This document shows, one piece after another, positions 29,836-55,825 of a DNA stretch of 64,000 bases. The notes under the pieces were generated by a model, which was not told the origin of the DNA, ran no database searches, and saw nothing but the letters and a program-made list of their open reading frames with translations. This stretch comes from an uncultured virus (IMG/VR IMGVR_UViG_3300037067_013436) (lineage: Duplodnaviria; Heunggongvirae; Uroviricota; Caudoviricetes), in IMG/VR virus record IMGVR_UViG_3300037067_013436; one strand, 5' to 3'. A program made the translations under genes and the position numbers. How positions within the stretch are numbered: position 1 is the first letter of the stretch; each line of letters begins with the position of its first letter.

Positions 29836-32800
29836 CTAGGGGTTAATAATATTCAACTCGCCTGTTGACGAGTTGAATATCAACCACAACTGATCCAAGA
29901 AGGTTCCGTCTAGGATGGTTTTTGTGTGTGTCTCGCTCAACTCACCATTCTGGTAGATTCGGAACGTAAAATCGGCATTACTACCGGTAGTACCAAGCCA
30001 AGTGCCATAACCATGTATTCCCTTCGTGCTGCCGGTCAGTTCCGATATGAGTCCAGAGTTTATTGTTCCTGTCTCAGAAAAATTACCTGGTTGGTTGTTT
30101 GTGTTGAGGGGATCAAATCGAACCCATTGGTCGAACTCGTCATAAACTGCAATGACTCCAGCGACAACAGGCTGTCCGGTATTATATGGGCTGTTGAAAT
30201 CTGCTCTGACACCAGCACCAATACCAGGGTCGAGATCTCCCCACTGTCCCTCTAGTTCGCATGTCCAAATTGGAGGCTCTGGTGATGGCGACGGTGACGG
30301 ATAAATGGTAACTGTACCATCTGTCGTATTGATCATCGCCCATGTGGTATCATTCGTGGAGTCGCGGGTCGTAGTATAGGTGCCGATGGAGATGCCATTT
30401 TTCTTGATATTCAGGTCAAGCTGTACCGACAATCTACCATAACCGCTCTCATCAACATAGACCGAGGGGCTGATGTAAAAGATGTTGGCGTTTGTATTAG
30501 CACTTAGGTTAGCCGTAATATTCCATGTCGTTGTGCCTTCATTCCAGATAATTGTTCCAGCCTCTGGTACTGACACGAATTGAATCCACGGCGGTTCCTC
30601 AAGCATTTGCATGTAATAAAACTGTCTCCCGCCCTGTTCATCTAATGAGAATGCTTCTATCCACTGCGCGTCTCCTTGATATGACCAAAATAGCGATGGA
30701 TCATAAATGAAAGGATCAACGCTCCATTGCAACCCGAAATTAAGTGCCATATATCGGCTTGTTTCTGGATCAGGCTGCGTTCCAGATGGTGTTGCTGCAA
30801 CCGTTAGCTCTGCAGTGTACTCATCAGTCACAGGAGATGGTTCTATGGAAGATGAAGGTTCAGGTGATGGCTCTGGAGAGGTGGAAGCTGAAGCTGAAGG
30901 TTCAGGCGATTCAGAAGGCGAAGGCGATAGGCTTAATGATGCAGACGGTGATAACGAGGTCGATGGCGACGGGCTAAGAGACAGCGACGGAGATAAACTC
31001 GGCGACGGAGATGGTGACGGCGATGTCGTCATGAGCGTGACTTCTGTCGTTTCACGAGCACCCATAACTTCACTATCAGCAGTCAGAATTATAGTTCGAC
31101 CATAATCTGTTCCTGGGCCGACGTCGATATCTAGTGCGACTACCGATCCCCAAGCACCATTTATGAACATGTAAGGTGATTCAACAGAATCAATATAAGA
31201 CTCCTGGCCAGCAAAGCGTAGCTGGCATAGGTATCCATCGATCGTCGCTGACCATGTAATTCGTGCAGTGCTAGGCGGTGCAGGTGTCTGATAAGCAGAG
31301 GTGCTATGCAGAAAAGCCGATGCAACTAGAGTGCTGCCTGGATTTAATAGCTCTGGTGCTTCGACTGCTAGAGTGTAAATCGGGACCGGAGGCACCAGAT
31401 AGTCTGGTGTATATCCGGGGCTGTCAATCGCCACAGCAGTACCATACTGACATGACAATGAGCCGAGACAAAGCTCGAACATGTTTATTTGTCGTTGGAA
31501 GGTCTGACCATCGGGGTACTCATCCCAAACGAGCTGGCCGTCAAAAGCGAGATCAGAGACACCGATCTTCTCTTCGGCATACAGCATCGTATCTATTGTT
31601 ATTTTATCAGGATTGAAGTCATAGCCGTATCTCGTTTCGCCATCTGAGAAGGTAAATGGCAAAGCATCGTCTTGATAGTCGTGTATCGGGCAGAGTAGAA
31701 CATCGGTCCCGGCTGTTGGTGATGTACCGCCGTCGCATAGCAGAGCTGCACATCCACAATCTGTTCTATATCCATTTGTATAAAGTATGCCGCTGATAAA
31801 GAAGAATAACACATCTGTGCCTGTTGGCATAGATCTATCGATTTCTAGTTCATTGAATAATTCTGTAAACGTACCATTTCTATCGAAATCATCCGGCACG
31901 TAAGGCTGGTAGCCGTGTGCAGCAGGATAACCATCAATATAATCAATGTAATACGGTGACGTTCCTTGACATCTCGCTGCTGTTGAGAACAGCGGCGTTG
32001 TCATGGCGTTTATCACATTATCAGCCGTGCAAGAGCTGATGTTAACCACTACATCATCTGTGTCGCACTCGCTGAACACTAAATCAGCCGAGTCAAGAAC
32101 CGTCTTATACACTTTGACGGTAACGTAACTCTCAGTAGCCTCTATAATCTTAGCAGATAAAGAATAAATGCTGTCAGGTAGGTTTTTAAGCTCGATACCG
32201 ATTGTGATTGTTGGCAACCGGCTAAAAGTGTAGCCATATGACCATCTGACGCCACCGACAACGTAATCTTTCGCTATGGAGATTATTGATCTCGATGGCG
32301 GCAACATCGTCTCTAGCGTGATGGCTGGGTTGCCAGTCGATTGAGTAGAATAAATCGAATGTATAACATCGCTGTCGTCGAATCTCTTATTTGTGCCGAG
32401 GATATGTGAACCGAAGCTTGGAATATCTGGTTGCAATCCATTCGCGACAATAACAAACGGAGCGTAGTCGAATACCAGATATTGGTCGCCAGATGTTGCC
32501 GTCTCAAGCTTCGCGTGTAGATAAGTCGGCTGTCTACATGCTTGGTCATATGGTCCGCAATTTGTGCTGTATTGATCGTCCCAAGGCTTCGCTACCCATT
32601 TTGGATGTGTGAAGTCGGATTCGAGCTTGTTGATTGTTGCGAATCTAGTGCCAGGAAAATGCATCAGCGGTACTTGGATACCAAGACTACGCCTCTGCAA
32701 TGCGAGCATGTTCTTTTCACCACAAGCTCCATCCGTTAAATAGGGCCGGTTAGTAAAATGGACATTCTCGCCATCGACGGTATCGTATCCTCGCAACAGT

Positions 32801-35800
32801 CGTCCTAAGAAGTTATTGTTGGTCGAAGGCAGATTCTCGTTGTATGATTGTTTTAATGCCGGACCCTGCACTGAATTCGTCAGTTCAGATGTGGCCTGGA
32901 ATGAATAATAGACGCCATCCCCAAAGTTTATCTTACAGATAGTAGCCTGGTATTGCTCCGTGCTAACCATCGTCATTCTGCGAAGTATTTCGTCTTCAAC
33001 GCGACCTTTATAGCAGTAGTCAGATATACCATCAAGCTTACAGAATCGATTGGGAAATACCGAGAATTCTTTCGTGAATGGCCCATATTCAGAAGCATCG
33101 TTATTCGTCGAAGCATCAGCACCGGTCGGATAGAAGCTGCCATGAATGATATTGTCGATAGGAGACAAATCAGTTGTTGATTGACTTGCTATGCTTGGCG
33201 TATTCGATATCGGGGTTGGATCATATACAATGCTTTCGTTTTCGGTATTCTGACCCGGTACAAGTCTATCTTGACCGCGATAGGTGAATTTGCAGCAAGG
33301 ATTATCAATGTCATCTACACACGGCTTAGATGGATCACCCCATGCACAACTATCTGCCGGTGGTGTAGGCGGTAGCTTCTCATCACCAATCTGTGTGACG
33401 ATTCTCTCAATGCAAGTCGGGTTGGGAGAATCGATAGTTGCTGGCTTTTCCAGATAGCGATTAACGTCAACCCATGCTTGAAATTCTTCCGGAAGATTCG
33501 CCAGTATTCTCTTACGTAGCGCAATATCTTCTGGCTTATATCCGAGATCACTTGGATCAACTGAGCATTCGCCAGTTGGAATTTCTGGTAAAATGGCCGG
33601 TGGCACCTGTAACTTACCGGCATCGATATCCCAGCGTTGCTCTAGATCACCACCGACACAGAACGGAGTGACTTGATATGTCTCATCTAGATTGGAATGA
33701 TAGATAAGAGTGTTCAATAATGAATGGAATGCTTTGATCTTGAACAGATAATCGATCAAGAACTCAAGTATATCACCACCAATCTGCTCGCCATTTTGTG
33801 TCAGCAATTGTATGTCAAAACGGTTGCTATATAAGTCTTTAATACTATCAGGAACAATCAACTCTTCGCGGCTATACGTAGCGAAGGCATATAATAGAAG
33901 CTCACTATCCGCAGCGTGTGGCCCTTTCTGACCGTACTTGTCGTCAAATTGAATCGAACCGTTAAATGTGAGATGTAGCAGGTTGGCATTTCTATCAATT
34001 CTGACACCGTTCGACACAAACGGTGGCTGGTCGCCGGTAGATCGATCGTCACCATTACCAACCGTAGCCGATCGATCAATCACAACCCTGGACCAGCTTA
34101 CAACACCAGCAGTCTCGTCATTCAGCAGCGTCGTCGTTCTGCATACCTTCGGGATGCGCGTATATAACAAGCTTTGAGCGATGTTTTGGAACGGTACTGA
34201 AACCGTAATGAGAGAATCGCTAAGGACTGCCGTAACTGTCCTTTCAGTTTCACCATTGACGATAACCGTGTCGCCAATCTCGAAGTCAGTTAAGAATAAG
34301 GTGCTGCTGTTGCCATACAGATTCGTGTTTTCGTTGGTAGAGACGGTACCTCGACCCGGTATTTTCCAGCTACCGGGATCATTATTACAATTCGCTGCGG
34401 CTGTCCCGATGCTGCACGAAATCTCTTCTAGGCGTTTGTATGCCCTACTGACATAAGCATAGGTCGTCCATTGGCTATCTGATCCAGTATTGCTTGTGTC
34501 GTTTTGGAACGGTATCGTAACAGTCAAATGATGGTTATCTAAAATAGTGGCTACGATTCTGGTAGTTTCGTTCGCCACCGATACCGTATCGCCTACTACG
34601 AAATCATTCGTGAATTGTGTGTCTGAATCGCCGAAAAGATCGATAGTCTGGTTTGTAGAGACTTGACCAGAGCCTATGATGTTCTTCTGCACCAGGTACG
34701 CATCTAATGTGATATCGCCTTCTTGAACCGTGTTGACGATACCTTGAACTTCATCAGTGAATGTTGGTCGATATAAGAGCGGAATGGTTAATTCACCGAA
34801 ACCGCTTGTGTTATAGCCGACAAGCACAGGCTCAATCTGGCAACTCTCTTCTATCTTAATCTCTTGGTTGGCGTAGGCTGATGGCAGCTTTTCCCCAGGA
34901 CGTATTAGTCTCTTGCCGTCCTTAGACCAGTATAGCTTGTTGACATAGACGATATAACCGAACAACTCAAAGAGATCGTAGATGGCGTTCCGTGAGCCCT
35001 TTAACTGTTGCAATCTTACAACATTGCGTAGCATCGTCTTACGCAGACGATAAAGGCTCTGTGGGAAGTATGGTAGATCAAGGCCAAGCAGGAAGCTAAG
35101 ATATGGAACGAATTGCGGTGTTATCCAATCGACCCAGTTGACGCTACCAAGCAAATACTGTTCGTCGAAAATGTCTTGTAGAATGTCGGTGAAAGGGCGA
35201 TAGAATTCGATTGTCGTATCTATGCTCTTCTGGTCGCTGGTCATGTAAGGAGCAGGAGTCAGATTAACCGTCTCCTGCATGACCTGACCGGGGTGATTCA
35301 TTCTGAACCGCTTGACCGACGTGGCTTTTCTGGTCGGATCAATGCAATTTAGCTGCCCTGGTGTTGATCTGCTCTCGACTCTAGCATAGTACTGTGCTTG
35401 ATAAGTGATATTATACCAATCTGGTGGCAGTTGTTCGGTATCGATCTTGATATCGCTGAGATCGTAGTAGTTAGCAGTCGGGTAATATCTGATCAGACCA
35501 CAGCATCCTGACGCGGTAGTGTATTGCATCAAGTCGCCACCGACAGCCTCTGAATAATCAATCGGCTGTAGTGTCTCTAGAATAGCGGTTTCTATAGTAC
35601 AATCGGCGTACAGATAAGGATTGGAGTCATTCTGATATTGGTTGCCAGTAGCTACAATCCTGAAGAATTGTTGTGAATCTGGATGGATCATTCTGTCGAT
35701 GAGTTCATTCATCGACACATTCTTCGCGAATAGCTCGTGATCGGGCGACATCAGCCCTATCGGTATCTGCCCAGCAACCAATGCCTTATGTGGTACGTCT

Positions 35801-36066
35801 TCTATGACGATTCTTACCGCAGCACCACTGCAGAATTCGTTGCATGTGGTCGTTTTGACACCCATACAATCGCATTCTACTCCGCCACCACAATCGCAGT
35901 TCTGGACGATAATGCTAGAATTATCTATAGGCAATCCCGCGATATCTCTGCGATCAGTCTCCATCAAAATCATCGGGAGTCCGAAGGGTCGATACGCGGT
36001 GCGATTATTGTTGACTGGCAGCAGAACCCATGTGGGAATGTGCGGGTTTGTTTGCATAGTACTCAT
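29836..36066 (-). CDS. Baseplate wedge-like protein (P2 gpI / T4 gp7-type region) with inserted domains and Ser/Pro stalk, ~2076 aa
   Basis: FVPYLSFLLGLDLP...LRKTMLRNVVRLQQLKGSRNAIYDLFELFGY is the wedge motif of contractile tails; AAGGA RBS before ATG 36066. Confidence 0.7.
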   Translation of the reverse strand: MSTMQTNPHIPTWVLLPVNNNRTAYRPFGLPMILMETDRRDIAGLPIDNSSIIVQNCDCGGGVECDCMGVKTTTCNEFCSGAAVRIVIEDVPHKALVAGQIPIGLMSPDHELFAKNVSMNELIDRMIHPDSQQFFRIVATGNQYQNDSNPYLYADCTIETAILETLQPIDYSEAVGGDLMQYTTASGCCGLIRYYPTANYYDLSDIKIDTEQLPPDWYNITYQAQYYARVESRSTPGQLNCIDPTRKATSVKRFRMNHPGQVMQETVNLTPAPYMTSDQKSIDTTIEFYRPFTDILQDIFDEQYLLGSVNWVDWITPQFVPYLSFLLGLDLPYFPQSLYRLRKTMLRNVVRLQQLKGSRNAIYDLFELFGYIVYVNKLYWSKDGKRLIRPGEKLPSAYANQEIKIEESCQIEPVLVGYNTSGFGELTIPLLYRPTFTDEVQGIVNTVQEGDITLDAYLVQKNIIGSGQVSTNQTIDLFGDSDTQFTNDFVVGDTVSVANETTRIVATILDNHHLTVTIPFQNDTSNTGSDSQWTTYAYVSRAYKRLEEISCSIGTAAANCNNDPGSWKIPGRGTVSTNENTNLYGNSSTLFLTDFEIGDTVIVNGETERTVTAVLSDSLITVSVPFQNIAQSLLYTRIPKVCRTTTLLNDETAGVVSWSRVVIDRSATVGNGDDRSTGDQPPFVSNGVRIDRNANLLHLTFNGSIQFDDKYGQKGPHAADSELLLYAFATYSREELIVPDSIKDLYSNRFDIQLLTQNGEQIGGDILEFLIDYLFKIKAFHSLLNTLIYHSNLDETYQVTPFCVGGDLEQRWDIDAGKLQVPPAILPEIPTGECSVDPSDLGYKPEDIALRKRILANLPEEFQAWVDVNRYLEKPATIDSPNPTCIERIVTQIGDEKLPPTPPADSCAWGDPSKPCVDDIDNPCCKFTYRGQDRLVPGQNTENESIVYDPTPISNTPSIASQSTTDLSPIDNIIHGSFYPTGADASTNNDASEYGPFTKEFSVFPNRFCKLDGISDYCYKGRVEDEILRRMTMVSTEQYQATICKINFGDGVYYSFQATSELTNSVQGPALKQSYNENLPSTNNNFLGRLLRGYDTVDGENVHFTNRPYLTDGACGEKNMLALQRRSLGIQVPLMHFPGTRFATINKLESDFTHPKWVAKPWDDQYSTNCGPYDQACRQPTYLHAKLETATSGDQYLVFDYAPFVIVANGLQPDIPSFGSHILGTNKRFDDSDVIHSIYSTQSTGNPAITLETMLPPSRSIISIAKDYVVGGVRWSYGYTFSRLPTITIGIELKNLPDSIYSLSAKIIEATESYVTVKVYKTVLDSADLVFSECDTDDVVVNISSCTADNVINAMTTPLFSTAARCQGTSPYYIDYIDGYPAAHGYQPYVPDDFDRNGTFTELFNELEIDRSMPTGTDVLFFFISGILYTNGYRTDCGCAALLCDGGTSPTAGTDVLLCPIHDYQDDALPFTFSDGETRYGYDFNPDKITIDTMLYAEEKIGVSDLAFDGQLVWDEYPDGQTFQRQINMFELCLGSLSCQYGTAVAIDSPGYTPDYLVPPVPIYTLAVEAPELLNPGSTLVASAFLHSTSAYQTPAPPSTARITWSATIDGYLCQLRFAGQESYIDSVESPYMFINGAWGSVVALDIDVGPGTDYGRTIILTADSEVMGARETTEVTLMTTSPSPSPSPSLSPSLSLSPSPSTSLSPSASLSLSPSPSESPEPSASASTSPEPSPEPSSSIEPSPVTDEYTAELTVAATPSGTQPDPETSRYMALNFGLQWSVDPFIYDPSLFWSYQGDAQWIEAFSLDEQGGRQFYYMQMLEEPPWIQFVSVPEAGTIIWNEGTTTWNITANLSANTNANIFYISPSVYVDESGYGRLSVQLDLNIKKNGISIGTYTTTRDSTNDTTWAMINTTDGTVTIYPSPSPSPEPPIWTCELEGQWGDLDPGIGAGVRADFNSPYNTGQPVVAGVIAVYDEFDQWVRFDPLNTNNQPGNFSETGTINSGLISELTGSTKGIHGYGTWLGTTGSNADFTFRIYQNGELSETHTKTILDGTFLDQLWLIFNSSTGELNIINP

Positions 36067-36140
36067 TCTTCCTTCATCGTATCTACCAACCACTTATCTT
36101 TCATAGGCAAACATATAACGAACAAACGCATAGAGATCTC

Positions 36141-38040: not shown

Positions 38041-38298
38041 CTATGGTAAATTGTAATGTTTCTTAACTCGCTCAACCAACTCCTTGTCAACTGTTTGTGG
38101 CTTGTCGAGTTTTTGTAATTCGTTGTCGTAATAATAAACAGCTACAATCAACGACGACCGCACAATTGTCCAAGACGCGATGAAGATCAAAAGGGCACAA
38201 ATCAGTCGCCATCGCCATTTATTCATGGTTTGCCCAGCCTGATAGTTTGGCCTATGTGCTGGCCTGTCAATACATATCGCCAAGTTGTTTTGCACCAA
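38041..38298 (-). CDS. Hypothetical membrane protein
   Basis: One TM segment; start uncertain (38298 or 38226). Confidence 0.5.
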   Translation of the reverse strand: MVQNNLAICIDRPAHRPNYQAGQTMNKWRWRLICALLIFIASWTIVRSSLIVAVYYYDNELQKLDKPQTVDKELVERVKKHYNLP

Positions 38299-38307
38299 TG
38301 GCCCTCT

Positions 38308-38595
38308 TTAACCCACCATTGGTGTGGTAGTGCGTTCCAAAATCTTAGCAATAATCTCATTGCGATCCCTATTGAACAGCGTTGAACTACAACCGCAACC
38401 AAAAGCGGGGCAGTCATCTTTATGTCCGCAGTCTTCTACATGAGCAATGATCTCCGCATAGCGACCGCATAGATAAGTCCCATCTTGTTGCGCTTCTAGA
38501 AAAGTGCATTGATGTTTATCCTTATCCCATTCACCCCACGGGCATGGCCCTTGCTTACAGCAAAAACCACATCTCACACAGCCTCGCGATCTCAT
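38308..38595 (-). CDS. YkgJ-like CxxCxxCC cysteine-cluster protein
   Basis: CVRCGFCCKQGPC...CTFL...YLCGRY. Start reassigned to ATG 38595 because the upstream codons are the T-arm of the RNA gene. Confidence 0.65.
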   Translation of the reverse strand: MRSRGCVRCGFCCKQGPCPWGEWDKDKHQCTFLEAQQDGTYLCGRYAEIIAHVEDCGHKDDCPAFGCGCSSTLFNRDRNEIIAKILERTTTPMVG

Positions 38596-38606
38596 GTCGT
38601 CGCAGC

Positions 38607-38754
38607 GGGAGTCGATGGGAGTCGAACCCATAATCACGCCTCCGTGATACCTGAAAGCCCTAACTTATGCTGGGCTATGTGCCGCACGGGCCGTTGCGCT
38701 GACGGCTGGACCGGCACTTTGGTTTTCGGTTGACGTGTCGCACCTGCCGACCCC
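38607..38754 (-). ncRNA. Miniature tmRNA-like RNA (~148 nt)
   Basis: Acceptor stem GGGGUCG/CGACUCC with G3-U wobble; canonical T-arm AUGGG-UUCGACU-CCCAU; no D-stem; helix ACGUC/GGCGU in place of the anticodon arm; CCA not encoded. Confidence 0.7.
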
Positions 38755-39492
38755 GGAAGGTTTATCGAACCAACGGTCATACATGCCGGAGAGAAATTCC
38801 TTCGAGAACACATATCCAGATCTATCGCCGATAACTGCATCGACGTTGCATCGTGGGCAGATAGCAGTATTCAAATTATCTGCCCACTTCTTGACCTCTG
38901 ATGGTGCGAATATTTCTCCACAATAGAAACACCCGCAATTAGTGCTTCGAATAACTTCGCTGCGATTATTGACTGCGTGAATGTGTGCTTTTTCATAATC
39001 TGACTGGTCAGGGGCTTCAATCGGCTCGTCTTCATCGCCGTTCTCTTGTGCCTCTAAGACTGTCAGTTTCTTGATGTAATAATCATCAACGATATCAAGA
39101 GTCTTCAATCGCTCTGCAATCTCTTTTCGTTCTTTTCGAACTTCCTCCAATAACTCACGGACCATCGCAGCAGTGATCTTCGGAGGCTTTTCAGATCGTT
39201 CCATCGGTACCAGCTTGATAGTACCTATTTTGGGCGGTTTTTGTGCCTTCGGTGGTTTGAGCGTGTATTCTTTCAACCCACGCTCCTTGATGAGAGCTAA
39301 CGTTGCGTTTCGAACTTCTTCTGATACTTTTCGAATATGCCGTGTGAATTGAGCGTTTACTCGACCGGCACCATTCATATACATCCCAACTAGCTTCTCG
39401 GCAGTCATACTATTGGACATGTTTGGCGACCTTAGCGTCTTTGATAGTGGTATCTGTAGATTGTAGCGCTTGTCGGCTTCGATGCCGACCAT
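38665..39492 (-). CDS. Hypothetical protein with coiled coil and C-terminal Cys-rich Zn-binding domain
   Basis: CGCFYC...AICPRCNVDAVIGDRSG. Start uncertain (39492, 39420 or 39408); the last ~30 codons overlap the RNA gene. Confidence 0.65.
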   Translation of the reverse strand: MVGIEADKRYNLQIPLSKTLRSPNMSNSMTAEKLVGMYMNGAGRVNAQFTRHIRKVSEEVRNATLALIKERGLKEYTLKPPKAQKPPKIGTIKLVPMERSEKPPKITAAMVRELLEEVRKERKEIAERLKTLDIVDDYYIKKLTVLEAQENGDEDEPIEAPDQSDYEKAHIHAVNNRSEVIRSTNCGCFYCGEIFAPSEVKKWADNLNTAICPRCNVDAVIGDRSGYVFSKEFLSGMYDRWFDKPSGVGRCDTSTENQSAGPAVSATARAAHSPA

Positions 39493-39995: not shown

Positions 39996-40261
39996 TATAA
40001 GTCAGCCTCCATGTCGTCGTCGAATTCGTTTATAGCATGATTGAGTCGCACCACGATGGTTTTGGCGATTTTTCTTGCATCAGCCAACGTAGTTTTTCGT
40101 TTTCCGGGTTTGCCGCCATATGCTTCTTGCTGCCCTGCTGGGCAGTGCCCGCGTTCAATCAGGCCATCGATTATTGGTTGCAACATATCACGACATGTTG
40201 CAACTTCATTTGAGAAATGGCCGCAAATCACCGCTCTTTCGCCAGCATCCAACTTTTTCAT
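39995..40261 (-). CDS. Hypothetical protein
   Basis: ATGA overlap with the upstream gene. Confidence 0.6.
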   Translation of the reverse strand: MKKLDAGERAVICGHFSNEVATCRDMLQPIIDGLIERGHCPAGQQEAYGGKPGKRKTTLADARKIAKTIVVRLNHAINEFDDDMEADL

Positions 40262-41343
40262 ATTTCAATTCTGTGCAGTTCTGGTACTTCTCGTGCATAG
40301 TATTTGATGTTCCCTAACATACGGCACTGCTCACCGGCACAAATGCTACCGTGCCCCAGCAGATTCACAAAGAACCAGTTGAGGTCGCCATCGGGAATGG
40401 TCCACAATATCTCATTTACTTCCTCTATTGCACCACAAGGAATGATTTTCTTAGTCGTAGGTGCACCGTGGACGTAGGTGTGGCTATGAATCATGAAATT
40501 GATTCGTGGGAAGGTCTTATATAGAGCTAGTTGGATTGGCGTATCGACAGATGGTTTGTTACTACCGTAATAGCCAACACTTTTCGGGGTGTCCTCGACA
40601 GCCACAAAGCTGTTGATGCCTAGGCTACGTTTATCGATATTCCTTCTCGTAACGTAGATCTTGTCTTTGCTGCGAAATGATGAAAATCCAACCTCGCATC
40701 TGAACGATGCATTACCCAAGAATCTACTGGTTGGAGCGTGTATCAGCCTATGAAACTTCGCGGCATACATCCCAACCAATGCCATGAACTCGTCGGTAAT
40801 TTCTTCATCCAAATTAGGAATTGGTGCTGCTTCGCCAACTTGCATACTTGGCTTTCTGGTGAATTCGCGAAGCTGTTTTAGCCTGCCCGAAATTGCCAGG
40901 GCCAACTGTTTGGGGTCGTGGGCTGACCTTATAAAACAGTTACCAAGTGGGTCGAGAAGATTGGCGTCCACGCCTTCTCTCTGTTTGATGAACTCTACTA
41001 ACAGGTTGCTCTTCGTTTGCAATGCTCTGGCGATGAGTTCTAGACAGCTATACTTGTTCCCGTCGTTGCGTTTCGACGTTATCAGCATGCATGTTGGATT
41101 GATTTTCTTAATCTCTCTGACCAACTTCGGCTTATGGTTCGGAACGTCAGCGAACCATAAGATGGTGTTGAATTTGGTGAAGTCGATATTGGCCAAATCA
41201 TCGAATTTGCCACCATTGAATACCTTATAGCTTTTGAATTGGCCATTAGCGAGCAAGTGGCTAATTAACGCATCGCCATAAGATGAAGGCCGACCACCAG
41301 CATCGCTGAAGGTTCCAACAACGAATAGAGCTTTCATTTTCAT
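40258..41343 (-). CDS. Class II aldolase/adducin-domain protein
   Basis: GNASFR, KPSVDTPIQLALY, FMIHSH and LLGHG metal-binding pattern. Confidence 0.65.
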   Translation of the reverse strand: MKMKALFVVGTFSDAGGRPSSYGDALISHLLANGQFKSYKVFNGGKFDDLANIDFTKFNTILWFADVPNHKPKLVREIKKINPTCMLITSKRNDGNKYSCLELIARALQTKSNLLVEFIKQREGVDANLLDPLGNCFIRSAHDPKQLALAISGRLKQLREFTRKPSMQVGEAAPIPNLDEEITDEFMALVGMYAAKFHRLIHAPTSRFLGNASFRCEVGFSSFRSKDKIYVTRRNIDKRSLGINSFVAVEDTPKSVGYYGSNKPSVDTPIQLALYKTFPRINFMIHSHTYVHGAPTTKKIIPCGAIEEVNEILWTIPDGDLNWFFVNLLGHGSICAGEQCRMLGNIKYYAREVPELHRIEI

Positions 41344-43686: not shown

Positions 43687-44235
43687 ATGAGAACGGTTTT
43701 GAAAAGAGGGCAACGAGTCGACATTTATCGTCCGGCTGTTATGGGCACTGTGGCTGAAATAGAGGGTGCTGCTACTCTCATTCAGTTAGTGCGGAAAAAT
43801 CACACATCGATTCCGCCATTCGAGACTTGGACGGTCAAGTTCGACGATGATGAAGAGCCGGTGCAGCGAGATATACCAGTCAAGCTGCCTCAAATTGCTG
43901 GTATGGCATCAAGTCTTGCTAGGCTTCCAGAAAGCCGAAATCTTTTGGCATTCATGGCGGAGGCTGGCATATCGAACGACTGGGTTGATACTTCCGGCAT
44001 CGCAGCTTACACAAGCGGTAAGGTCTTGAGCAACGAGGTCGGTGCCGTGGAACTGGCTGGCAGTAGGAAGATCAACGAAGAGATGCTCATACATCTTGAG
44101 CATGGCAAGACCAAGATCGTTCTCAACCTCAATACGCTGTTGGTGTTGGCGTCAAGCTACATACGCCAACAATTCAACATAGCAGCCGAAGCAGCAGAAA
44201 ACAGAAATGAATTGCCAGATAGTGATTCCCGCTAG
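43687..44235 (+). CDS. Hypothetical protein
   Basis: GAGG RBS; 182 aa. Confidence 0.65.
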   Translation: MRTVLKRGQRVDIYRPAVMGTVAEIEGAATLIQLVRKNHTSIPPFETWTVKFDDDEEPVQRDIPVKLPQIAGMASSLARLPESRNLLAFMAEAGISNDWVDTSGIAAYTSGKVLSNEVGAVELAGSRKINEEMLIHLEHGKTKIVLNLNTLLVLASSYIRQQFNIAAEAAENRNELPDSDSR

Positions 44236-44950
44236 GATCGGTTCGACACGCTTAGAACGTAAGCTCTTACTGCGGGCAACCGGTAAACCTCTCATCCAAC
44301 ACACATGGGAAGCTGCTATCGGCTCCACTCGTGCATCAGGCGTTTGTGTAGCTACCGATAGTAAGGAAATCTTTGATGAGGTCGAGTCGTTTGGTGGTAT
44401 AGCTGTTATAACTAGCTCGCTACCAAATAGCGGCACTGATAGGGTAGCAGAAGTCGCAAGGCGTATGACAAACGTCGACATCTTCGTCAATCTGCAAGGC
44501 GACGAGCCTGAGATATCGGCCAGGACCATCGATCTAGCTATCGAAATGTTGGCGAATCCATACATCAATATGAGCACGATAGCTACTCCGATTCGAGACA
44601 AGAAGCATCTTGATGATCCTGCTTGTGTCAAGGTGATATTCGATGTTATAGGCAAGACTGCGTACTATTTCAGCCGAAGTGCTATCCCTTATCCGCGATG
44701 CTGGGACGACGCCTACCTATCATTGCCTACCTTTTTCCAGCATATAGGCATCTATGCCTATCGACGAAGATTCCTATTACAAATGGCTGCTATGCCTCCA
44801 GGTAGATTAGAAACGATTGAGAAGCTGGAGCAACTTAGAGTCATAGAAGCTGGCTTGCCAATAGCTGTCGGTGTTGTAGATGAACCGACGTTCGGAATAG
44901 ATACTCTCGAAGACTATTTAGAATTCGTGAGAAGGCAGAAGACTACTTAG
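44207..44950 (+). CDS. kdsB: 3-deoxy-manno-octulosonate cytidylyltransferase (CMP-Kdo synthetase)
   Basis: IPARIGSTRL..K, VATD, SGTDRVAE, VNLQGDEP, YFSRSAIPY, HIGIYAYR, LETIEKLEQLR, GIDTLED. Confidence 0.93.
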   Translation: MNCQIVIPARIGSTRLERKLLLRATGKPLIQHTWEAAIGSTRASGVCVATDSKEIFDEVESFGGIAVITSSLPNSGTDRVAEVARRMTNVDIFVNLQGDEPEISARTIDLAIEMLANPYINMSTIATPIRDKKHLDDPACVKVIFDVIGKTAYYFSRSAIPYPRCWDDAYLSLPTFFQHIGIYAYRRRFLLQMAAMPPGRLETIEKLEQLRVIEAGLPIAVGVVDEPTFGIDTLEDYLEFVRRQKTT

Positions 44951-47696: not shown

Positions 47697-47975
47697 ATGA
47701 ATACAATATATGACACCAGGATAAATTATGCCAGCGGTGGGGTTGTATGGACTTTCGACATGCCATTCGAACATCCTCCAGTGGTGTGTATAGGAGTGCA
47801 GCTAAATAACCTGCCTGACAGCATATATCCCATATCGCACAAAATTGTTAGTTTGACAGCAACATCGGTGACGATCAAGGTCTATAAGGTTGAATTGACG
47901 GATCTTAGAGACCTTCTCTTTAGTGAGTGTGCGACCAATGATGTCGTCGTTCACATAACGGCTGAGGGAGAATAA
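47697..47975 (+). CDS. Small beta-sandwich protein (H-type-lectin/gp53-like), homologous to an internal domain of the baseplate protein
   Basis: F..PP.V.IGVQL.NLPDSIY...S.TIKVYK...FSEC.T.DVVV; GAGGGTGA RBS. Confidence 0.6.
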
Positions 47976-50900
47976 TGTTAAGTAATACTGACAGGTTGGT
48001 CACAAAAGCAGCCGCCGACTACACTATAAGAGTAGGCGCAACCGATTCTGAATATACGTCAATTCAAGAAGCTATCAACCATGCGGTCGATAAAGACGTC
48101 ATCTTTGTCAAGCCGGGTGTGTATAATGAAAATCTGGTAGTCAACAAACTACTAACGATTTATGCAGAAGATAGCGACAACACGACCATCACTGGCGATG
48201 GCGTAACTCCTGCTGTCCATATCACCGCCCCAGGTGGAGCATTCAAGCAGTTCGGTATCACCGCCTTATCGAATAACCAGACAGGCATCTTTTTAGATAA
48301 TTCGGCCAGTATTGATTCATTCCTTATCGAAGGATGCGCGTGCTTTGGGAATAAGAACGGCATCGAGCTAAACAACAGCAAGAACAACAATATTGGCAAC
48401 AACGTATTAACTGGCAATCGACAGTTCGGTATCTTGTTGCGTGACGGATCAGACAACAATACTGTAAGTGCTAATATTGCAACTGGCAACGCTGACGGTA
48501 TCGGAGTCAATAATTCGACCGGCAATGTCGGTGAAGAGAATAACGTCACTGGAAACGTCAACACCGGTTATTCCTTTGTATATGCTTCTGGGAACAACTT
48601 CTCGGAATGCACAACAAAGTCGAATAATATCGGCATGTACTTCCAGAACTCAACGAACAATAGATTCCACTATAACGAAGTAGTCGACAACCTCGACGCG
48701 ATCAAAATGGTTGCTTCTTCATCCAATACGGTGGAGAGCAACACGATTCTTGAGCGGACTGTAGGATCATCGATTACTCTTGATGCCGACTGCAGCAGCA
48801 ATAGAATAAATCATAATACTTATCGTATCCCGGCTATTGATCTCGGGACAGATAACGTTTTTGTCAACAACCATTCTCTTTCGCCATCATTGCAATACGA
48901 CGTAGCGACTGTCCGATACGTCAACAGCATGATCCAGCCAGGCGGTGAGAGTAGCGACGTTGTTTGTGGTGTACTTCGCGCTATCAACGGTGCGACTCTC
49001 AAGTGGAAGTTTTACTCATCTAACCATATCAGGTTATATAATACTGACGTTTCAGCTTGGGAGATAATCGAAGTCGGTACAGAACCGACAGCCGCAAACA
49101 CAGACCAGGACATGTGTGGTGATGTCCTTGCGGCAGATCTCGTTTATGACGTTTTCGCCGTCTATAACTCGACGCTGACTTCATTTGACATCACGTTTGC
49201 ACCATGGAAGATCGTGTCGACTGATGGAGCCAATAATCCAGGGACAACAACATGCACGACAACGATGACGTCGGATGTCACACCTGTGCCAGAGGTTGTG
49301 AGTGCAAGTAGTGAATTATATGGTGCGTGGAATGCTTTCAGCGACGATCCAGTACGATATTGGTCGTCTACACCGACGCCGCTAGCTACGTCCGCATTCA
49401 TTAAATATGACTTCAACGTTCCAACAATCGTCAATAAGTATGCATTGAAGTCAAACCAGAACATCGCATTCCCGACTACTTTTTCACTTGCTGGATCAAA
49501 TAACGACATCGATTATACGTTATTGGATTCGCGAACGGGCATTGTCGGTCCTGGCGACGACGCATGGACGACGTATTACACATTCAATAACGGTACGGCT
49601 TATCGTTATTATAAGCTAGTAACGAATTGCCCTGCTGATGCTGGCTACGGTGCGATGTATGTCGAGCTAACTGCGGTTAAGTTGGTTCGAGGTCTACCAT
49701 CGAATTCCAGAGCTAATTATTGGATCACCGGAACAAATTATCGCGTCGGCGATCGTGTCATTCACGGTGACGCCTACATCTGCTTGGTAGCTCATACCGC
49801 TGATGATTTCGCTACTGATTTAGCCAGCGGTAGATGGGTTCTTGGCGATCCTTGTGGGCTTGGTATCTTCGAAGGCGTACCGGTTTATGCAGATTCAGGC
49901 GTATATCGCAGCTATCGATGGCTCGGTATGGTATCACTCTACACGCAAGGAGGCGCAGCAAATTTCAGCAACTCGCTGATAAGCAACTTCTACAACCCAA
50001 TTGATAGAAATAAAGAGAATGGAGATGTTGTAGTCGAGACTGGTGCTCTCGGCAATGTGGTGCTCGGCACGATCGATTTTCCACGTGGCGATGGTCTTCC
50101 AGGCCAAGTCCTTGAGACTGATGGTGCTGGGCATTTAAATTGGGTTAATAACGGTGCTGACTTACTAAGCACCGACGTTGTTGGCGGCAACTTACATGTT
50201 GCTAGCCCAACTAACCTGACATGGAACTACGTAGAATCCAATGAGATTCGGTTGTTCAATGGTTCTATAAATTCATGGCAGACTGTACGATGTGCAACGC
50301 CACCATCTGCATCGAACATCGTTAACGATATGGACGCGACCCCATTGATGTCGCATAGAGTTTATGACGTCTTTGGTTTCTTCCGCACCGATACGGTTTT
50401 TGAATTAGAATTCGCTCCTTGGAAGTTTGTTCCATCGGACGGTATATACAATCCCGGTACGACCACGTGCACGGCGAAGATGACTGGCTTCAATTCGCCG
50501 ACGCCAAATGCTATAATCACAAGCTCAACCGGCGTTACATATGCCGATATTGACAACACTTATTATTATGGTTGGTATGCATTTAGCCAGTTAAATAATA
50601 ACGTCGGTTGGGCAGTTCAAATTGGCGGTTATTCGTACACGCCCGGTGATCCGTTCCAACAGCCTATGTGGATCACCTACGATTTTGGGCCAACCACCAA
50701 GAAGGTCATCAACAAGTACGCTTGGAAAGCGAAAAAATACTATCCATCGTTGCCGAGAGACTGGACGGTATCTGGATCGAACGACAATGTTAACTGGTCA
50801 ATACTCGATACGAAAGTTGGTATTGATCCGCCACCGGGCATTGGCATATGGTCGCAATACTTCACGTTCAATAATGCGATCGCCTATAGGTTCTATCGTA

Positions 50901-53900
50901 TCGATGTCACGGCGTGCACATATCCATGGCAATGCTCATATTGGTATGTGTATTATCTAGCTACGATTGGCGAGATCGTGTTGATCGAGTCGAATGCTGT
51001 AGCAGAAAGCCGTATCGATACTTGGTTGTCCGGCGTGCATTATGGTGTTGGTACGAGAGTATCACACTCATATGTTTATGCTTGTGTTAGCAGCCACGTG
51101 TCATACGATTTTGATACCGATCTGGCAGCCGGTCGATGGATTCAGGTCGATTCGGACGGTCTTGCGACTTTAGATGGCGTTCCTGTTTATGTGCCATCTG
51201 GTGATTACAAGGGACATCGCTGGCTCGGCACTATCGTCATGGACGATAACGCTGGGACGCCGGTTTATAATCCTGACCGTTTGACGAATTTTTATAATCT
51301 TATTGAGCGGCGCAGAGATGGTGAGCAGGTAACAATCAGCGGCGAGCAAGTTGGAATCGGTTTGTATAATCCAACGGCTCGTCTGCACATCAAAGCAGGT
51401 GAGGCAGCACCGGGCGGGGCACCTCTCAAGTTAACGACTGGCGATGTGCTAGCTGTTCCGGAGCCAGGAGCAGTCGAGTTCATTAGAGACGACGTTTATT
51501 TCACCATTACTACAGATGGAGCTAGAAAAGGCTTCGTGTTGAATGATGGTACTCGTCTTACTCCAAACAGAATACCGTTTGCTGGAACACGTGGTCGCCT
51601 AGTTGACAGCACAGGGCTATCATATAGTGCTGCTGATGGGCTACAAGTCAACGGTGTCCACTCCCAAACGGATCAAGACTTGTTACTTGATGCTTGGGGT
51701 ACTAACAAGCATGTCATCATTAGCAATCTGAGATTCCCGAACACTGACGGTACTACAGGTCAAGTGTTGGTGACTGATGGCTTGCGGCATCTGTCGTGGT
51801 CGTCAAATGGCGTATTCGGTGCAACTGGACCCATTGGACTTACTGGTGCTACTGGTCCTTCTGGCGGACCAGTTGGTGCTACTGGTTCAACTGGACCGGT
51901 CGGTTCGGTTGGCCCAATCGGGCCTCGTGGTGCCACTGGTTTAGGTGCTACTGGCTCTACTGGTCCGGTTGGAGCGTCCGGGCCTGCCGGTGGACCGATT
52001 GGAGCAACCGGTGAAGCTGGTCCAGTTGGTGCTACCGGTTTCACAGGACCGAGAGGTTCTACTGGTATCGGCGACATTGGCTCAACTGGAGCAACTGGTG
52101 TTCCAGGTTCTACTGGTCCTTCTGGCGGTCCTGTTGGTGCAACTGGAGCAACAGGTTTCACCGGCGAAACTGGTGCTACTGGACCTGCTGGTGGTCCTAC
52201 TGGAGCAACTGGAGCAACTGGTATTGGTCTAACAGGCTCCACAGGTGCATACGGCTCTACTGGTGCAACTGGTCTTTCCGGTGCTACTGGTCCTGGTGGA
52301 GGACCGACCGGTGCGACCGGTCCTACTGGCGCAATCGGTGCGACCGGTATGGGTGCCTCAGGTTCGGGTGCTGAAGGTGCTACTGGTCCAGCAGGACAGC
52401 CTGGTGCTACTGGTCCAAGTGGTGGCGAACCAGGTGCAACTGGCACACATGGTGCGACAGGTGCAACTGGCTGGACCGGCTTTACAGGTGCGACTGGTGC
52501 GACTGGTATAGGTATCACTGGTTTACCAGGTGCCAGCGGTGCAATAGGTGCAACAGGCACACATGGGTCTACTGGCCCTTCTGGTGGTCCAATTGGTGCA
52601 ACCGGTACACAAGGGTCAAGCGGTATCAGTGGCTCAACCGGTTATTCTGGTGCTACTGGTGCCACAGGCGTGAGCGTCACTGGTCCTCCTGGTGCTACTG
52701 GTCCTTCTGGCGGTCCTGTTGGTGCGACAGGTGCAACCGGAACTGCTGGCGGTACCGGTGCCACGGGCTGGGGTGGTGCCACAGGCACAAGAGGTGCAAC
52801 AGGTGCGATTGGCCTGACCGGTTCTACTGGCCTTTCTGGCGCTAGTGGCATTGGTGCAACAGGTCCACTTGGCCCTATTGGTTCATCTGGTGCGACGGGC
52901 TTCATTGGTGCTACTGGTCTTCCTGGTGCATCAGGCCCATATGGTGGCCCAATTGGTGCAACTGGCCCATCTGGTGCTAGCGGTGCTACCGGCTTCGATG
53001 GTGCAACCGGATTCACTGGTGCTACCGGATTAGCTGGTTCAACAGGTGTCGACGGTGCTTCGGGTGCTTCTGGCGCAACAGGTGTTCAGGGAGCAAGCGG
53101 TACTCAAGGAGCAAGTGGCTTAGCTGGTGCTACGGGCATCGGGGCTTCTGGTGCAACAGGTATTGATGGGGCGACAGGCTCAACTGGTCCTATTGGCTTG
53201 ACTGGAGCAACAGGTATCGACGGAGCTAGCGGCGCTTCTGGAGCTACAGGCGTTCAAGGAGCAAGCGGCATTGGTGCTTCAGGCGTTCAAGGCGCATCAG
53301 GCTTGACCGGATATACCGGTCTTACTGGCTCAACCGGACCACAAGGCGCTACTGGTGCTGGCCTCACTGGTGCTACAGGTATCGACGGTGCATCTGGTGC
53401 GACTGGGGTACAAGGATCAACAGGCCCGCAGGGTGCGACTGGACCTGGTGCTTCAGGTGCAACTGGTATTGGTGCTTCTGGTGCGACAGGCTACACTGGT
53501 TTTCAAGGCGACCCAGGCCCTCAAGGTGCTAGCGGTGCAACAGGCGTCCAAGGTGCTTCTGGTATTGGTGCCACTGGTCTTGAGGGAGCGTCTGGTGCTT
53601 CCGGCGCAACTGGTGTTCAAGGAGCAAGTGGTGCTGAAGGTGCTACAGGGGCAGGAGCCACTGGAGTAGACGGAGCTTCTGGTGCTACAGGCATCGGAGC
53701 TACTGGTCCTCAAGGTGCGACTGGACCAGGAGCTACAGGCATTGATGGTGCCTCTGGTGCAACAGGCGCAGATGGAGCGACCGGCCCTCAAGGTTCGACA
53801 GGACCAGAGGGAGCAACTGGACCCGGAGCTACTGGTATTGATGGGGCTTCTGGTGCCACTGGCGTGCAAGGCGCTTCTGGTATCTCTGGTGCATCTGGTA

Positions 53901-55825
53901 CTATTGGAGTTGACGGTGCATCTGGACCAACTGGTTCTACTGGCCCGATCGGTGCGACCGGCATTGGGGCTTCTGGTGCTACTGGCTTTGAGGGAGCATC
54001 TGGCGTTGTCGGTGCTTCAGGCCCTCAAGGTGCTACCGGTATTGATGGTGCAACCGGCCCTGTTGGTGCTTCCGGTGCTATCGGGGTTATCGGCACGCCG
54101 ACTATTGGTGATTACACTAGTGGTCTATTTCCGTGGACGCCGACAACACTTATAGCAGATGCCGAACAGTCTGTGAATGAATTCATGGCAGCACTAGCAC
54201 CACCATTAGCACCGGAGTTCAGCATGTATGACGGCACGCAGCTTGGTGTTACCGGCAAGATGAGCTATGATGCTTCGCATATCATAACTGACATCTACGG
54301 TGTTGACGGCATCGGCAATCTCACCGCCGTAAATGTTGATGAAGCCTTCACAGCAGCGGCATTGACTGGAATGCGAAGAGGCATATTCAGTGCTTCTACA
54401 ACAACCTTTACTGGCAAGCTTGCTTCCAATGTTCAGCAAGGCACTGGTGATCCGACACCGGCATATCCGGCTTACGCTTTCAAGGATGGCGATGAAGGCA
54501 CGTTGGATCTATACATCAACACCGACGCTGCTCCAACTTATAGCCTCGACCTCGCTGCCAACCAAGGCTCTGGCACTTATGTTAATGGCGATGGCAGTGG
54601 ATTTGTGCTGACTGCTGTTACGAGCGAGAAATTCCCGAACGGGACTGACTTCACACTATTCAAGTACCGCACTGGCACGTGGGTCGTCGGCGGTAACGAT
54701 TTGCGAGAAGGTTGGAACTACATTCGCATCACCCACACTGTCGGCACCAGCAGGCCAGTAGTCAACCTTTATCTCGACTTCGTTCGTGATTTGAATACGA
54801 CTGCTACAGCTTTCAGCAGCGAATCGATGTCGGGATTCAGCGGAACAGGCAGTAAGTACCTGTCAGGCGTTGAATTCTACACTGGTGGGTCTGCCACCTA
54901 CAACAACACCGTTGATAACCTCTACCGGAACACGTATTATTCTGGTAGCGATGCATTGGCTTACACGGTCACTAATGCCCAAGCGATTGCCAGCGATACT
55001 TTGGCTACCGGTGCTGGTGATGAAGCCAAACAAGTTGTTATTAGTAAGACTGCTCATCTCATTGCTTCTGGTACACGATTGATTAGCCAGTCTATGACCG
55101 TGAGAACTGTTGCTAAACGGACGGTCCAGACACAACAAACTTCAACCGGCGCATCAATCAGCGGAATCTTGTTGGATAACGTAGCAGCAACATCAACTAT
55201 CACCTTGGAGGGATTTGATGATGAGAACTACCGGTTACCGTCCGGCAGTGATTTTGATTCTTCCAGCACGGCTGTAACTGGCTCTTGGGATTCCACAATT
55301 TCGCTGGTTGATAGTGGATCTTATCCCGATGGTTTGCAAGAGATAACTAGCCAACTAGTTTATCCGGTGGCGGATTACTCAATCATCCCGAATGGTCCGC
55401 CGTCGAACGTCAATTACTCAACAGGAGTGAGTGGCGCTAGGACATATTACCGATTCTTCGATATGTCGCCAACTGGTCGATCCAATTTCATGATCTCTGT
55501 GAATGGAGCTGGCACGATCAGAGCTAATAGCTACAGCATGACTAATGGCTCTGATGATCTGAAAGTCGATATCAAGCTGCCCAATGGCAGTGCGGAAGGT
55601 ACTGGCTGGTTAGATGTGACAGCATTATTTATCAGTGGAAACTGGGCTGACGGCGATGGATGTTTGTTGGGTGGAACGTTTGCAATGAATACGCCATTGC
55701 AAGCACTCACTGTTGGCACGAAAAATACAGCGGCGACATCGGTTAATGGCAAGGTCTTTATTCGAATTCGAGTGCCACAGGCGTGGACCGGGAATTTGAC
55801 GAGCATCACTTTCGCTGGAGTTTAA
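47975..55825 (+). CDS. Giant fibre protein (2616 aa): NosD/pectate-lyase-like beta-helix, two discoidin (F5/8C)+CBM5/12-like modules, ~750-aa collagen-like region, C-terminal domain
   Basis: [22 protein letters not shown] with Asn-rich beta-helix repeats; W..YDF....VNKY...P..W..SGSND...W..LD...YRYYK; G-X-Y run ~51820-54090. Confidence 0.8.

Follow-up and report, generated by a model that had tools for sequence, protein, structure and literature searches.

A putative reduced tmRNA-like RNA gene overlapped by two reading frames in a jumbo phage

Transfer-messenger RNAs (tmRNAs) are encoded by several phages, and they are compared here with a 148-nucleotide (nt) element on the minus strand of the window, a stretch of 64,000 nt from the uncultured virus IMGVR_UViG_3300037067_013436. 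Full-length phage tmRNAs are described, in passages of PMC4131195, PMC12484599, PMC7162821 and PMC9004378, from Bacillus phage G (308 bp) and eight mycobacteriophages, and also from marine myophages and from huge phages; ARAGORN was the tool that found all of them. The tmRNA of mycobacteriophage DS6A (tmRNA Website tmID 11587) is listed as 'TLD only', the TLD being the tRNA-like domain, and strong inhibition of tmRNA is reported for a similar molecule, regardless of its ability to be charged (passages of PMC4131195). The DS6A form inhibits the endogenous tmRNA in E. coli, and tmRNAs without a coding sequence (CDS) occur in jakobid mitochondria and in the plastids of Mallomonadaceae, the latter being about 65 bp long (passages of PMC11915505). 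DS6A is the only CDS-less phage form named in our literature searches and in the passages of PMC4131195 and PMC11915505, and these literature searches yielded no description of a phage tmRNA form of about 150 nt, nor of one overlapped by open reading frames (ORFs).

The element is almost certainly a real RNA gene. It quite probably contains a tmRNA-type TLD, and we lean towards its interpretation as a reduced tmRNA-like RNA of a jumbo phage, a TLD with a 90-nt stub, maintained as an independently conserved gene. The stub would comprise an extended helix 2, a nested arm and a helix-5-like hairpin with a stop codon in its loop.

Copies, covariation and fold

The earlier note on this DNA, made from the sequence alone, had taken the element for a phage RNA, and the window is indeed part of a 388,105-bp virus record, a jumbo phage genome that is rated 99% complete and has 5 tRNA genes (ARAGORN). 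Exact-pattern scans of viral contigs with a 22-mer and an 18-mer brought up one further contig, L002. A 19-mer scan of metagenome contigs gave 12 loci, of which five are real (L042, L049, L050, L053 and L047); L047 is the window's own record and hence was not counted as a separate copy, and the remaining seven were chance matches that were excluded prior to alignment. The set of six distinct copies is comprised of the window, L042, L049, L050, L053 and L002. An 18-mer scan of genome contigs produced 40 loci, all of them chance matches, mostly in high-GC bacteria, with scores of at most 16.8 bits in R1, a covariance model built from the six copies. R1 scores 183.9 bits at the element, its single match in the 388-kb genome, and has one match in the 122-kb record of L002. 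No match was obtained by blastn of 1.2 kb against 50,697 phage records, and a search of viral contigs for related loci with the 275-amino-acid (aa) protein encoded upstream found none.

Conservation of the short form in relatives had been set beforehand as a test of the idea. All six copies are 147-149 nt long, none is a full-length tmRNA, and the covariation among them is strong. At a mean column identity of 93%, RNAalifold finds 46 pairs, none of which is broken in any sequence and 10 of which have changes on both sides. In a stricter structure of 41 pairs, all 246 cells are paired (100%) and 9 pairs show compensatory changes. Shuffles of this structure gave 3.2 +/- 1.3 compensated pairs and reached 9 in none of 500 trials; when the 3' partners were slid by 1-3 columns, 35-46% of the cells were paired and 0-1 pairs were compensated. 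The proposal of a genuine structured RNA with a tmRNA-type TLD is borne out to this extent by the copies.

The covarying pairs are spread over the interior of the molecule (Table 1). The nested arm GUGCCG/CGGCAC, which occupies the place of pseudoknot PK1 of tmRNA, reads GUGUCG/CGACAC in L042 and GUAUUG/CAAUAC in L002, four of its pairs being changed on both sides. The hairpin within it, GCCGU/ACGGC, becomes GCCGC/GCGGC in L042. The helix-5-like hairpin AGCCC/GGGCU becomes GAUCC/GGGUC or GAUCC/GGAUC, so that three of its five pairs covary, and a stop codon, UAA or UAG, stands at the same position of its loop in all six copies. Helix 2a is formed by ACGUC with GGCGU, part of a 6-bp helix CACGUC/GGCGUG, and is extended by covarying pairs; in helix 2, C26-G113 is replaced by U-A, A32-U106 by G-C and U22-G116 by U-A (positions along the RNA), and CCG/CGG as a whole by UCG/CGA in L002. 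Two homologous protein tails point the same way, their RNA being read from protein sequence, not from DNA: P0006 has T...V where the window has A...A, for which a change of G40-C74 to A-U would be the simplest reading, and P0007 has V...A, probably a U-G intermediate.

The acceptor stem retains all 7 pairs in the six copies, the sole change being U5-A68 to U-G in L053. The T-arm, a 5-bp stem with a 7-nt UUCGAnU loop, follows helix 2a after a linker of 3 nt and is invariant in all six; in a contig of one sequencing run A124 is changed to G, which places a G-U pair in the T-stem and GUG at the start codon. Owing to its G-U pairs (G3-U70 in six copies, U22-G116 in five, and others), the fold is strand-specific and belongs to the minus strand. 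The single-sequence folding energy of -57.1 kcal/mol (z -2.28) is a modest excess, since 4 of 200 shuffles were as good.

The acceptor stem, the G3-U70 pair, the T-arm, the missing D stem, helix 2a, the hairpins and the loop UAA had all been read from the sequence in the earlier note and are present, as are the discriminator C and the lack of an encoded CCA. Two of its pairings have to be replaced. For ACCGAAA with UUUCAGGU, covariation backs CCG/CGG (26-28 with 111-113) and ACC/GGU (32-34 with 104-106) instead, and the A25-U106 pair of the former register would be A-C in L002. The proposed pseudoknot between the loop GCGCA and a downstream UGCG is contradicted by the sole informative change, G72 to A in L002, which breaks its pair and is compensated within the nested helix GUGCCG/CGGCAC.

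Table 1. Coordinates in the window of the element, its parts and the two overlapping ORFs
Feature	Positions	Strand	Remarks
Whole RNA gene	38607..38754	minus	148 nt including discriminator C at 38607
Acceptor stem, 5' strand GGGGUCG	38748..38754	minus	G1-C72, G2-C71, G3-U70, G4-C69
Acceptor stem, 3' strand CGACUCC, with discriminator C (38607)	38607..38614	minus	next bases GCU, not CCA
D-loop analogue GCAGGUGCGA, without D stem	38738..38747	minus	10 nt, invariant in 6/6 copies
Helix 2, 5' strands CACGUC (38732-38737), CCG (38727-38729), ACC (38721-38723)	38721..38737	minus	
Helix 2, 3' strands GGU (38649-38651), CGG (38642-38644), GGCGUG (38635-38640)	38635..38651	minus	
Nested arm GUGCCG/CGGCAC	38679..38717	minus	strands 38712-38717 with 38679-38684
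Hairpin GCCGU-CAGCGCA-ACGGC within the nested arm	38690-38706	minus	
Helix-5-like hairpin AGCCC/GGGCU	38656..38676	minus	11-nt loop with stop UAA (38665-38667)
T-arm AUGGG-UUCGACU-CCCAU	38615-38631	minus	begins with the downstream ORF's AUG
Shine-Dalgarno-like GGAGG	38639-38643	minus	inside the helix 2 3' strands
Upstream 275-aa ORF	38665..39492	minus	zinc-ribbon-like C-terminal domain, phrog_30788
Downstream 107-aa CxxCxxCC Cys-cluster ORF (YcgN-like)	38308..38631	minus	

The two overlapping reading frames

The element had been placed between two ORFs, and both of them in fact overlap it. The last 29 codons of the 275-aa ORF are the first 87 nt of the RNA, and its stop is the UAA of the hairpin loop. 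The match to phrog_30788 is confined to residues 165-242, which leaves the last ~30 residues of the protein outside the family profile. On the other side, the Cys-cluster ORF opens with 9 codons (MGSTPIDSR) that run through the T-arm and the acceptor 3' strand and end three bases further on, and GGAGG lies 7 nt ahead of its AUG. The variants of this GGAGG, GAAGG in L002 and GGAGA in L049, track the pairing of the RNA. Distant homologues of the Cys-cluster protein begin MA(E/K/D)C..CGFCC and have no MGSTPIDSR extension; the YcgN-like name of one homologue comes from one source.

The element is independent of both ORFs. L002 lacks the upstream ORF; an aldolase-like gene and then a non-coding stretch precede the element, and the window's open frame runs into a stop after 11 codons. 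L042 has no Cys-cluster gene; a frame of just 11 codons starts from the T-stem AUG, and the next gene is a homologue of the window's ORF at 38041-38298. The element is intact in both, and the T-arm is 100% conserved in L042. Its ends are exact: homology to other contexts stops at 38755 and at about 38604, and in contigs from other sequencing runs all resemblance is lost immediately behind 38755, where two additional 5' contexts occur, and ahead of 38604. Identity between copies is 82-98% in the element and 60-82% upstream and 60-76% downstream in the homologous flanking coding DNA.

The part of the RNA fused to the upstream ORF is conserved as RNA and not as protein, because the fused tail has 7 synonymous and 34 non-synonymous differences (summed over 10 non-independent pairs) against 137 synonymous and 96 non-synonymous ones in the last 40 codons of the adjoining protein domain. 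The compensatory changes in the tail are themselves amino-acid changes, A to V with A to T and V to A with T to A. As for the downstream gene, 36 of its 38 viral loci have no T-loop motif upstream, so the Cys-cluster gene does not in general have this RNA as its leader. A motif is present in L004, which lies on the same contig as L002, and in L016, where it belongs to a genuine tRNA-Trp. Nor is the element restricted to Cys-cluster loci, as would be expected of a cis leader, since L042 has lost the gene and retains the element.

Some further observations concern these ORFs. The Cys-cluster gene is widespread in phages and has tRNA neighbours at L016 (the tRNA-Trp 45 nt upstream and 7 more tRNAs) as well as at L013, L032 and L028; it may have a tRNA-related role. 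The two ORFs share one frame in the window with a single UAA between them (38631-38667, minus), which is probably incidental, the shared frame being broken by a 1-nt deletion in L053. The contig of L002 also encodes a 147-aa ORF (L100, G001:C1:24231-24461) that resembles just residues 29-105 of the 275-aa protein and lies downstream of the element and the Cys-cluster gene, so that the surroundings of the RNA gene are rearranged there.

Resemblance to tmRNAs and tRNAs

The plan of the element is a 7-bp acceptor stem (GGGG/CUCC with G3-U70), a D-loop without a stem, a helix at the place of the anticodon stem and a T-arm. It corresponds to the plan of the TLD of tmRNA. The T-arm has the 5-bp stem and the UUCGAnU loop, and the D-loop leads straight into helix 2a with no D stem (layout compared by eye with RF00023). 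The linker GCAGGUGCGA contains GG and together with C18 gives a ...CGAC motif, so that the D-loop analogue can be aligned by eye with GG..CGAC of the Rfam tmRNA consensus line.

Other features of tmRNA are lacking or doubtful. The nested helix with its 4 compensated pairs stands in place of PK1, and there is no single-stranded resume region. A stop is present in the hairpin loop of every copy, but the frame that it closes is the tail of the upstream ORF in five of the six, the peptide being HSPA or HDPV; the translated tag (AHSPA) suggested in the earlier note is unproven. According to passages of PMC9976931, every known prokaryotic tRNA-Ala has A at position 73, and recognition of minihelices by alanyl-tRNA synthetase suffers severely when this base is mutated. 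The discriminator of the element is C in six of six copies, which makes alanylation doubtful. The bases that follow are GCU or GUU across the copies. The missing CCA is a weak caveat and normal for this genome, since none of the phage's own five tRNA genes encodes CCA.

The closest known relative is the 'TLD-only' tmRNA of DS6A. In 412 kb of other loci the best non-self match of R1 is an 80-nt stretch in the gp33-gp34 gap of DS6A (26.8 bits, E 7e-4), which the Rfam tmRNA model matches end to end with 34.7 bits. We take this stretch, JN698994 28478-28557, to be the listed tmRNA; it was placed by the R1 and Rfam matches, as the papers give no coordinates. Both RNAs are phage-encoded and share an acceptor stem of 7 bp that includes G3-U70, a D-loop that has no stem and ends in CGAC, helix 2a and the T-arm; both are devoid of pseudoknots, and neither is called by ARAGORN. 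The R1 match runs over the full length of the model (1-148), its inner 90 positions being replaced by 19 nt. The DS6A form is 80 nt long, 'little more than the TLD' in the wording of the source passages, whereas the element has 148 nt, 90 of which, inside helix 2a, form a conserved and covarying stub. Moreover, in DS6A the discriminator is A with CUA after it and the RNA sits between genes, in contrast to the C followed by GCU and the ORF overlaps on both sides of the element.

The full-length phage tmRNAs are likewise ssrA-type RNAs of large, tRNA-bearing phage genomes and have the same TLD plan. They possess pseudoknots and a clear tag frame and are visible to ARAGORN, whereas the element is not half as long, has none of PK1-4 and escapes both ARAGORN and Rfam. 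The CDS-less organellar tmRNAs, which can be likened to the element by description, are also reduced, retain the TLD and have neither a tag frame nor pseudoknots; they differ in their vertical descent from the ancestor of the organelle and in their nuclear-encoded SmpB partner (passages of PMC11915505). With tRNA-Ala the element has in common a standard T-arm and the pairs G1-C72, G2-C71 and G3-U70, the identity set according to passages of PMC9976931, and it differs in having no D stem, no anticodon arm and C73 in place of A73.

Several observations weigh against the interpretation as a tmRNA-like RNA. The check suggested in the earlier note, with ARAGORN and the Rfam tmRNA model, did not recognise the element: ARAGORN calls no tmRNA in the window (0 genes) or in the whole 388-kb genome, and at the gathering score (47 bits for the tmRNA model RF00023, 29 bits for the Rfam tRNA model) Rfam finds 0 families in the window. 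In E-value mode there is no tmRNA match, just a tRNA match over the T-arm region with 13.5 bits. RF00023 (positions 347-363) matches the T-arm of the element alone, with 12.9 bits against 34.7 for the DS6A stretch. R1 also gives ordinary tRNAs 14-22 bits, so its DS6A match is mostly acceptor stem and T-arm. Because the similarity seen by R1 and RF00023 is mostly of this kind, the element is filed as tmRNA-like by its architecture and not as a proven member of the family. The discriminator C in every copy tells against it as well. The six copies are close relatives, and their acceptor stems and T-arms are conserved, with hardly any variation by which covariation could test them. Neither an SmpB gene nor a CCA-adding enzyme was found in the phage genome. 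GGAGG and the downstream AUG lie inside the structure, which makes a role in cis possible, and a simple SmpB decoy does not explain why a 90-nt stub should be conserved and covary. Of the mini-tmRNA interpretation as first put forward, the structured RNA, the TLD and the conserved short form stand, while PK1, recognition by the detectors and A73 do not.

The tRNA region of phage T4 offers a further lead, though no more than that. Its 'species 1 and 2' are small, stable tRNA-like RNAs of about 120-140 nt that are processed together with tRNAs and have no known function.

Function, competing explanations and significance

As to function, we tentatively propose, as the likeliest role, that the element acts as a competitor or decoy by which SmpB or stalled ribosomes would be diverted from the host tmRNA. 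The RNA is probably co-transcribed with its neighbours, because these are on the same strand and because a scan for promoter- and terminator-like sites around the element gave counts no higher than in shuffles. It would then be cut from the polycistronic transcript by the tRNA-processing enzymes of the host and released like the phage's own CCA-less tRNAs. The freed RNA would bind host SmpB, perhaps with EF-Tu and a stalled ribosome, through its TLD. SmpB or the stalled ribosomes would be diverted from the tag-and-degrade pathway of host tmRNA, as reported for DS6A, and phage proteins made from processed or truncated messages would be spared. A competitor role is favoured by C73, by the lack of a single-stranded resume region and by the lack of a phage SmpB gene. 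A decoy had been one of the options in the earlier note, and it has a published precedent in DS6A (passages of PMC4131195 and PMC11915505).

Alternatively, the element could be a part of the messenger RNA that acts in cis, either as an RNase P/RNase Z cleavage signal between cistrons or as a means of controlling translation of the Cys-cluster gene by burying its Shine-Dalgarno sequence and its start codon. GGAGG and the AUG 7 nt behind it are both base-paired in the fold, and in L049, L050 and L053 this AUG is an obligatory start, there being no other before the first Cys. The upstream ORF has no stop of its own, and the absence of promoter- or terminator-like sites beyond chance also fits. 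However, deletion of the Cys-cluster gene in L042 and absence of the upstream ORF in L002 have left the element fully conserved, and 36 of the 38 viral Cys-cluster loci do without a T-loop motif. The invariant G3-U70 pair, the tmRNA-type D-loop and the covarying 90-nt stub would be needless for a processing signal or a ribosome-binding-site trap. A cis-acting function is, on this evidence, rather unlikely.

The element could also be a working minimal tmRNA that is charged with alanine despite C73, enters the ribosome with SmpB and encodes a short tag that does not cause degradation (GCA CAU AGC CCA GCA UAA or the HDPV variants). G1-C72, G2-C71 and G3-U70 are invariant; the loop stop is present in all six copies including L002, where no upstream ORF needs one; the four changes in the short frame within two sequence types are synonymous or from stop to stop; and CDS-less tmRNAs as well as tags of just 2 aa exist (passages of PMC11915505). 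The stop has an ordinary explanation, though, as the end of the 275-aa ORF in five of six copies, and the would-be resume codon sits in a helix supported by covariation, 2 nt from the hairpin, with no PK1. The peptide varies (HSPA, HDPV) and does not have the usual hydrophobic ...AA end, and one partial contig variant (run X10, 30 letters) seems to have no in-frame stop at this place. Together with C73 these points make a working minimal tmRNA unlikely.

A derived tRNA, for instance a tRNA-Ala that has lost its D arm and has an expanded or intron-bearing anticodon arm, or a tRNA-like decoy unrelated to tmRNA, is a quite improbable source of the element. An acceptor stem and a T-arm are common to tRNAs in general, the 13.5-bit match of the Rfam tRNA model falls on the T-arm region, real tRNAs score 14-22 bits in R1, and with its threshold lowered to 50% ARAGORN fits a 'tRNA-Leu(tag)' with an intron of 58 nt to precisely 38607-38754. 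A canonical or intron-containing tRNA was nevertheless rejected, as ARAGORN calls nothing in default mode or in intron mode at default threshold and the Rfam tRNA score is far from the 29 bits of its gathering score. Low thresholds (10-50%) also made ARAGORN draw plainly spurious structures on either strand, permuted 'tmRNAs' on the wrong one among them, and these runs were not used as evidence. In addition, the D and anticodon stems of the drawn tRNA conflict with covariation (CCG/CGG to UCG/CGA belongs to helix 2), and no 7-nt anticodon loop is present.

It is very doubtful that the element is a working 148-nt tmRNA coupled to the gene that it overlaps, which would be the smallest one-piece tmRNA with a message. 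Cleavage at G1 would strip the 275-aa ORF of its stop, and the freed RNA would rescue the ribosomes stalled there. The protein would be finished from the internal frame with the same last residues (...AHSPA or ...HDPV) and stop as by read-through. If true, this would be a self-contained module of non-degradative trans-translation, giving the same product with or without processing.

Chance resemblance in coding sequence conserved for the two proteins only is refuted: both ends do lie in ORFs, the single-sequence z is just -2.28 and a simple scan picks up 7 genomic sites, not all genuine, at which an acceptor stem is combined with a T-arm, yet the compensatory changes alter amino acids, conservation does not depend on the presence of either ORF, and the element is more conserved than the coding sequence of either protein.

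Within ~9 kb on either side of the element no translation-related gene was matched by Pfam, which found just a weak DNA-ligase domain, a cytidylyltransferase and a giant protein with collagen and beta-helix repeats, and NCBIfam gave weak matches, none translation-related, for the two overlapping ORFs and the aldolase-like gene. The giant ORF at 47975-55825 (plus, 2616 aa) has collagen repeats, NosD/beta-helix and carbohydrate-binding domains and looks fibre- or depolymerase-like; another giant ORF at 29836-36093 (minus, 2085 aa) has no Pfam match. Two genes belong to sugar metabolism. The product of one, at 40258-41343 (minus), has 361 aa and a C-terminal domain of class II aldolase/epimerase-like type; that of the other, at 44207-44950 (plus), is a cytidylyltransferase of the CMP-sugar type (PF02348, E 2.9e-46).

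Outside the window, at G000:C1:156441-156547 (minus), lies another tRNA-like candidate of non-canonical form, 107 nt long. It has a perfect 7-bp acceptor stem GCAUCCG/CGGAUGC, the T-arm GGCUG-UUCGAUU-CAGCC and an odd middle; ARAGORN finds nothing there by default and at a lowered threshold draws a 'tRNA-SeC(tca)' with a 27-nt intron. Two tRNA-like R1 matches at L013:4288-4370 and L013:4503-4582 (plus; 22.2 and 14.1 bits) are not called by ARAGORN either and adjoin three tRNAs that are.

Reduced tmRNA-like RNAs of phages are probably under-counted, because ARAGORN and Rfam see nothing at the present locus and gene callers cover it with two ORFs. If the element is what we take it to be, a lineage of such RNAs exists in jumbo phages of landfill and groundwater metagenomes. 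What is new in it is a length nearly twice that of the DS6A form, a remnant of the message domain that covaries, C as the discriminator and the overlap with two genes. This double overlap means that one stretch of DNA is under selection at the RNA level and yet is read as protein, as the tail of one product and the start codon of the other. If host trans-translation is blocked or replaced by the RNA, this would suggest that ribosome rescue is a regular target of phage takeover.

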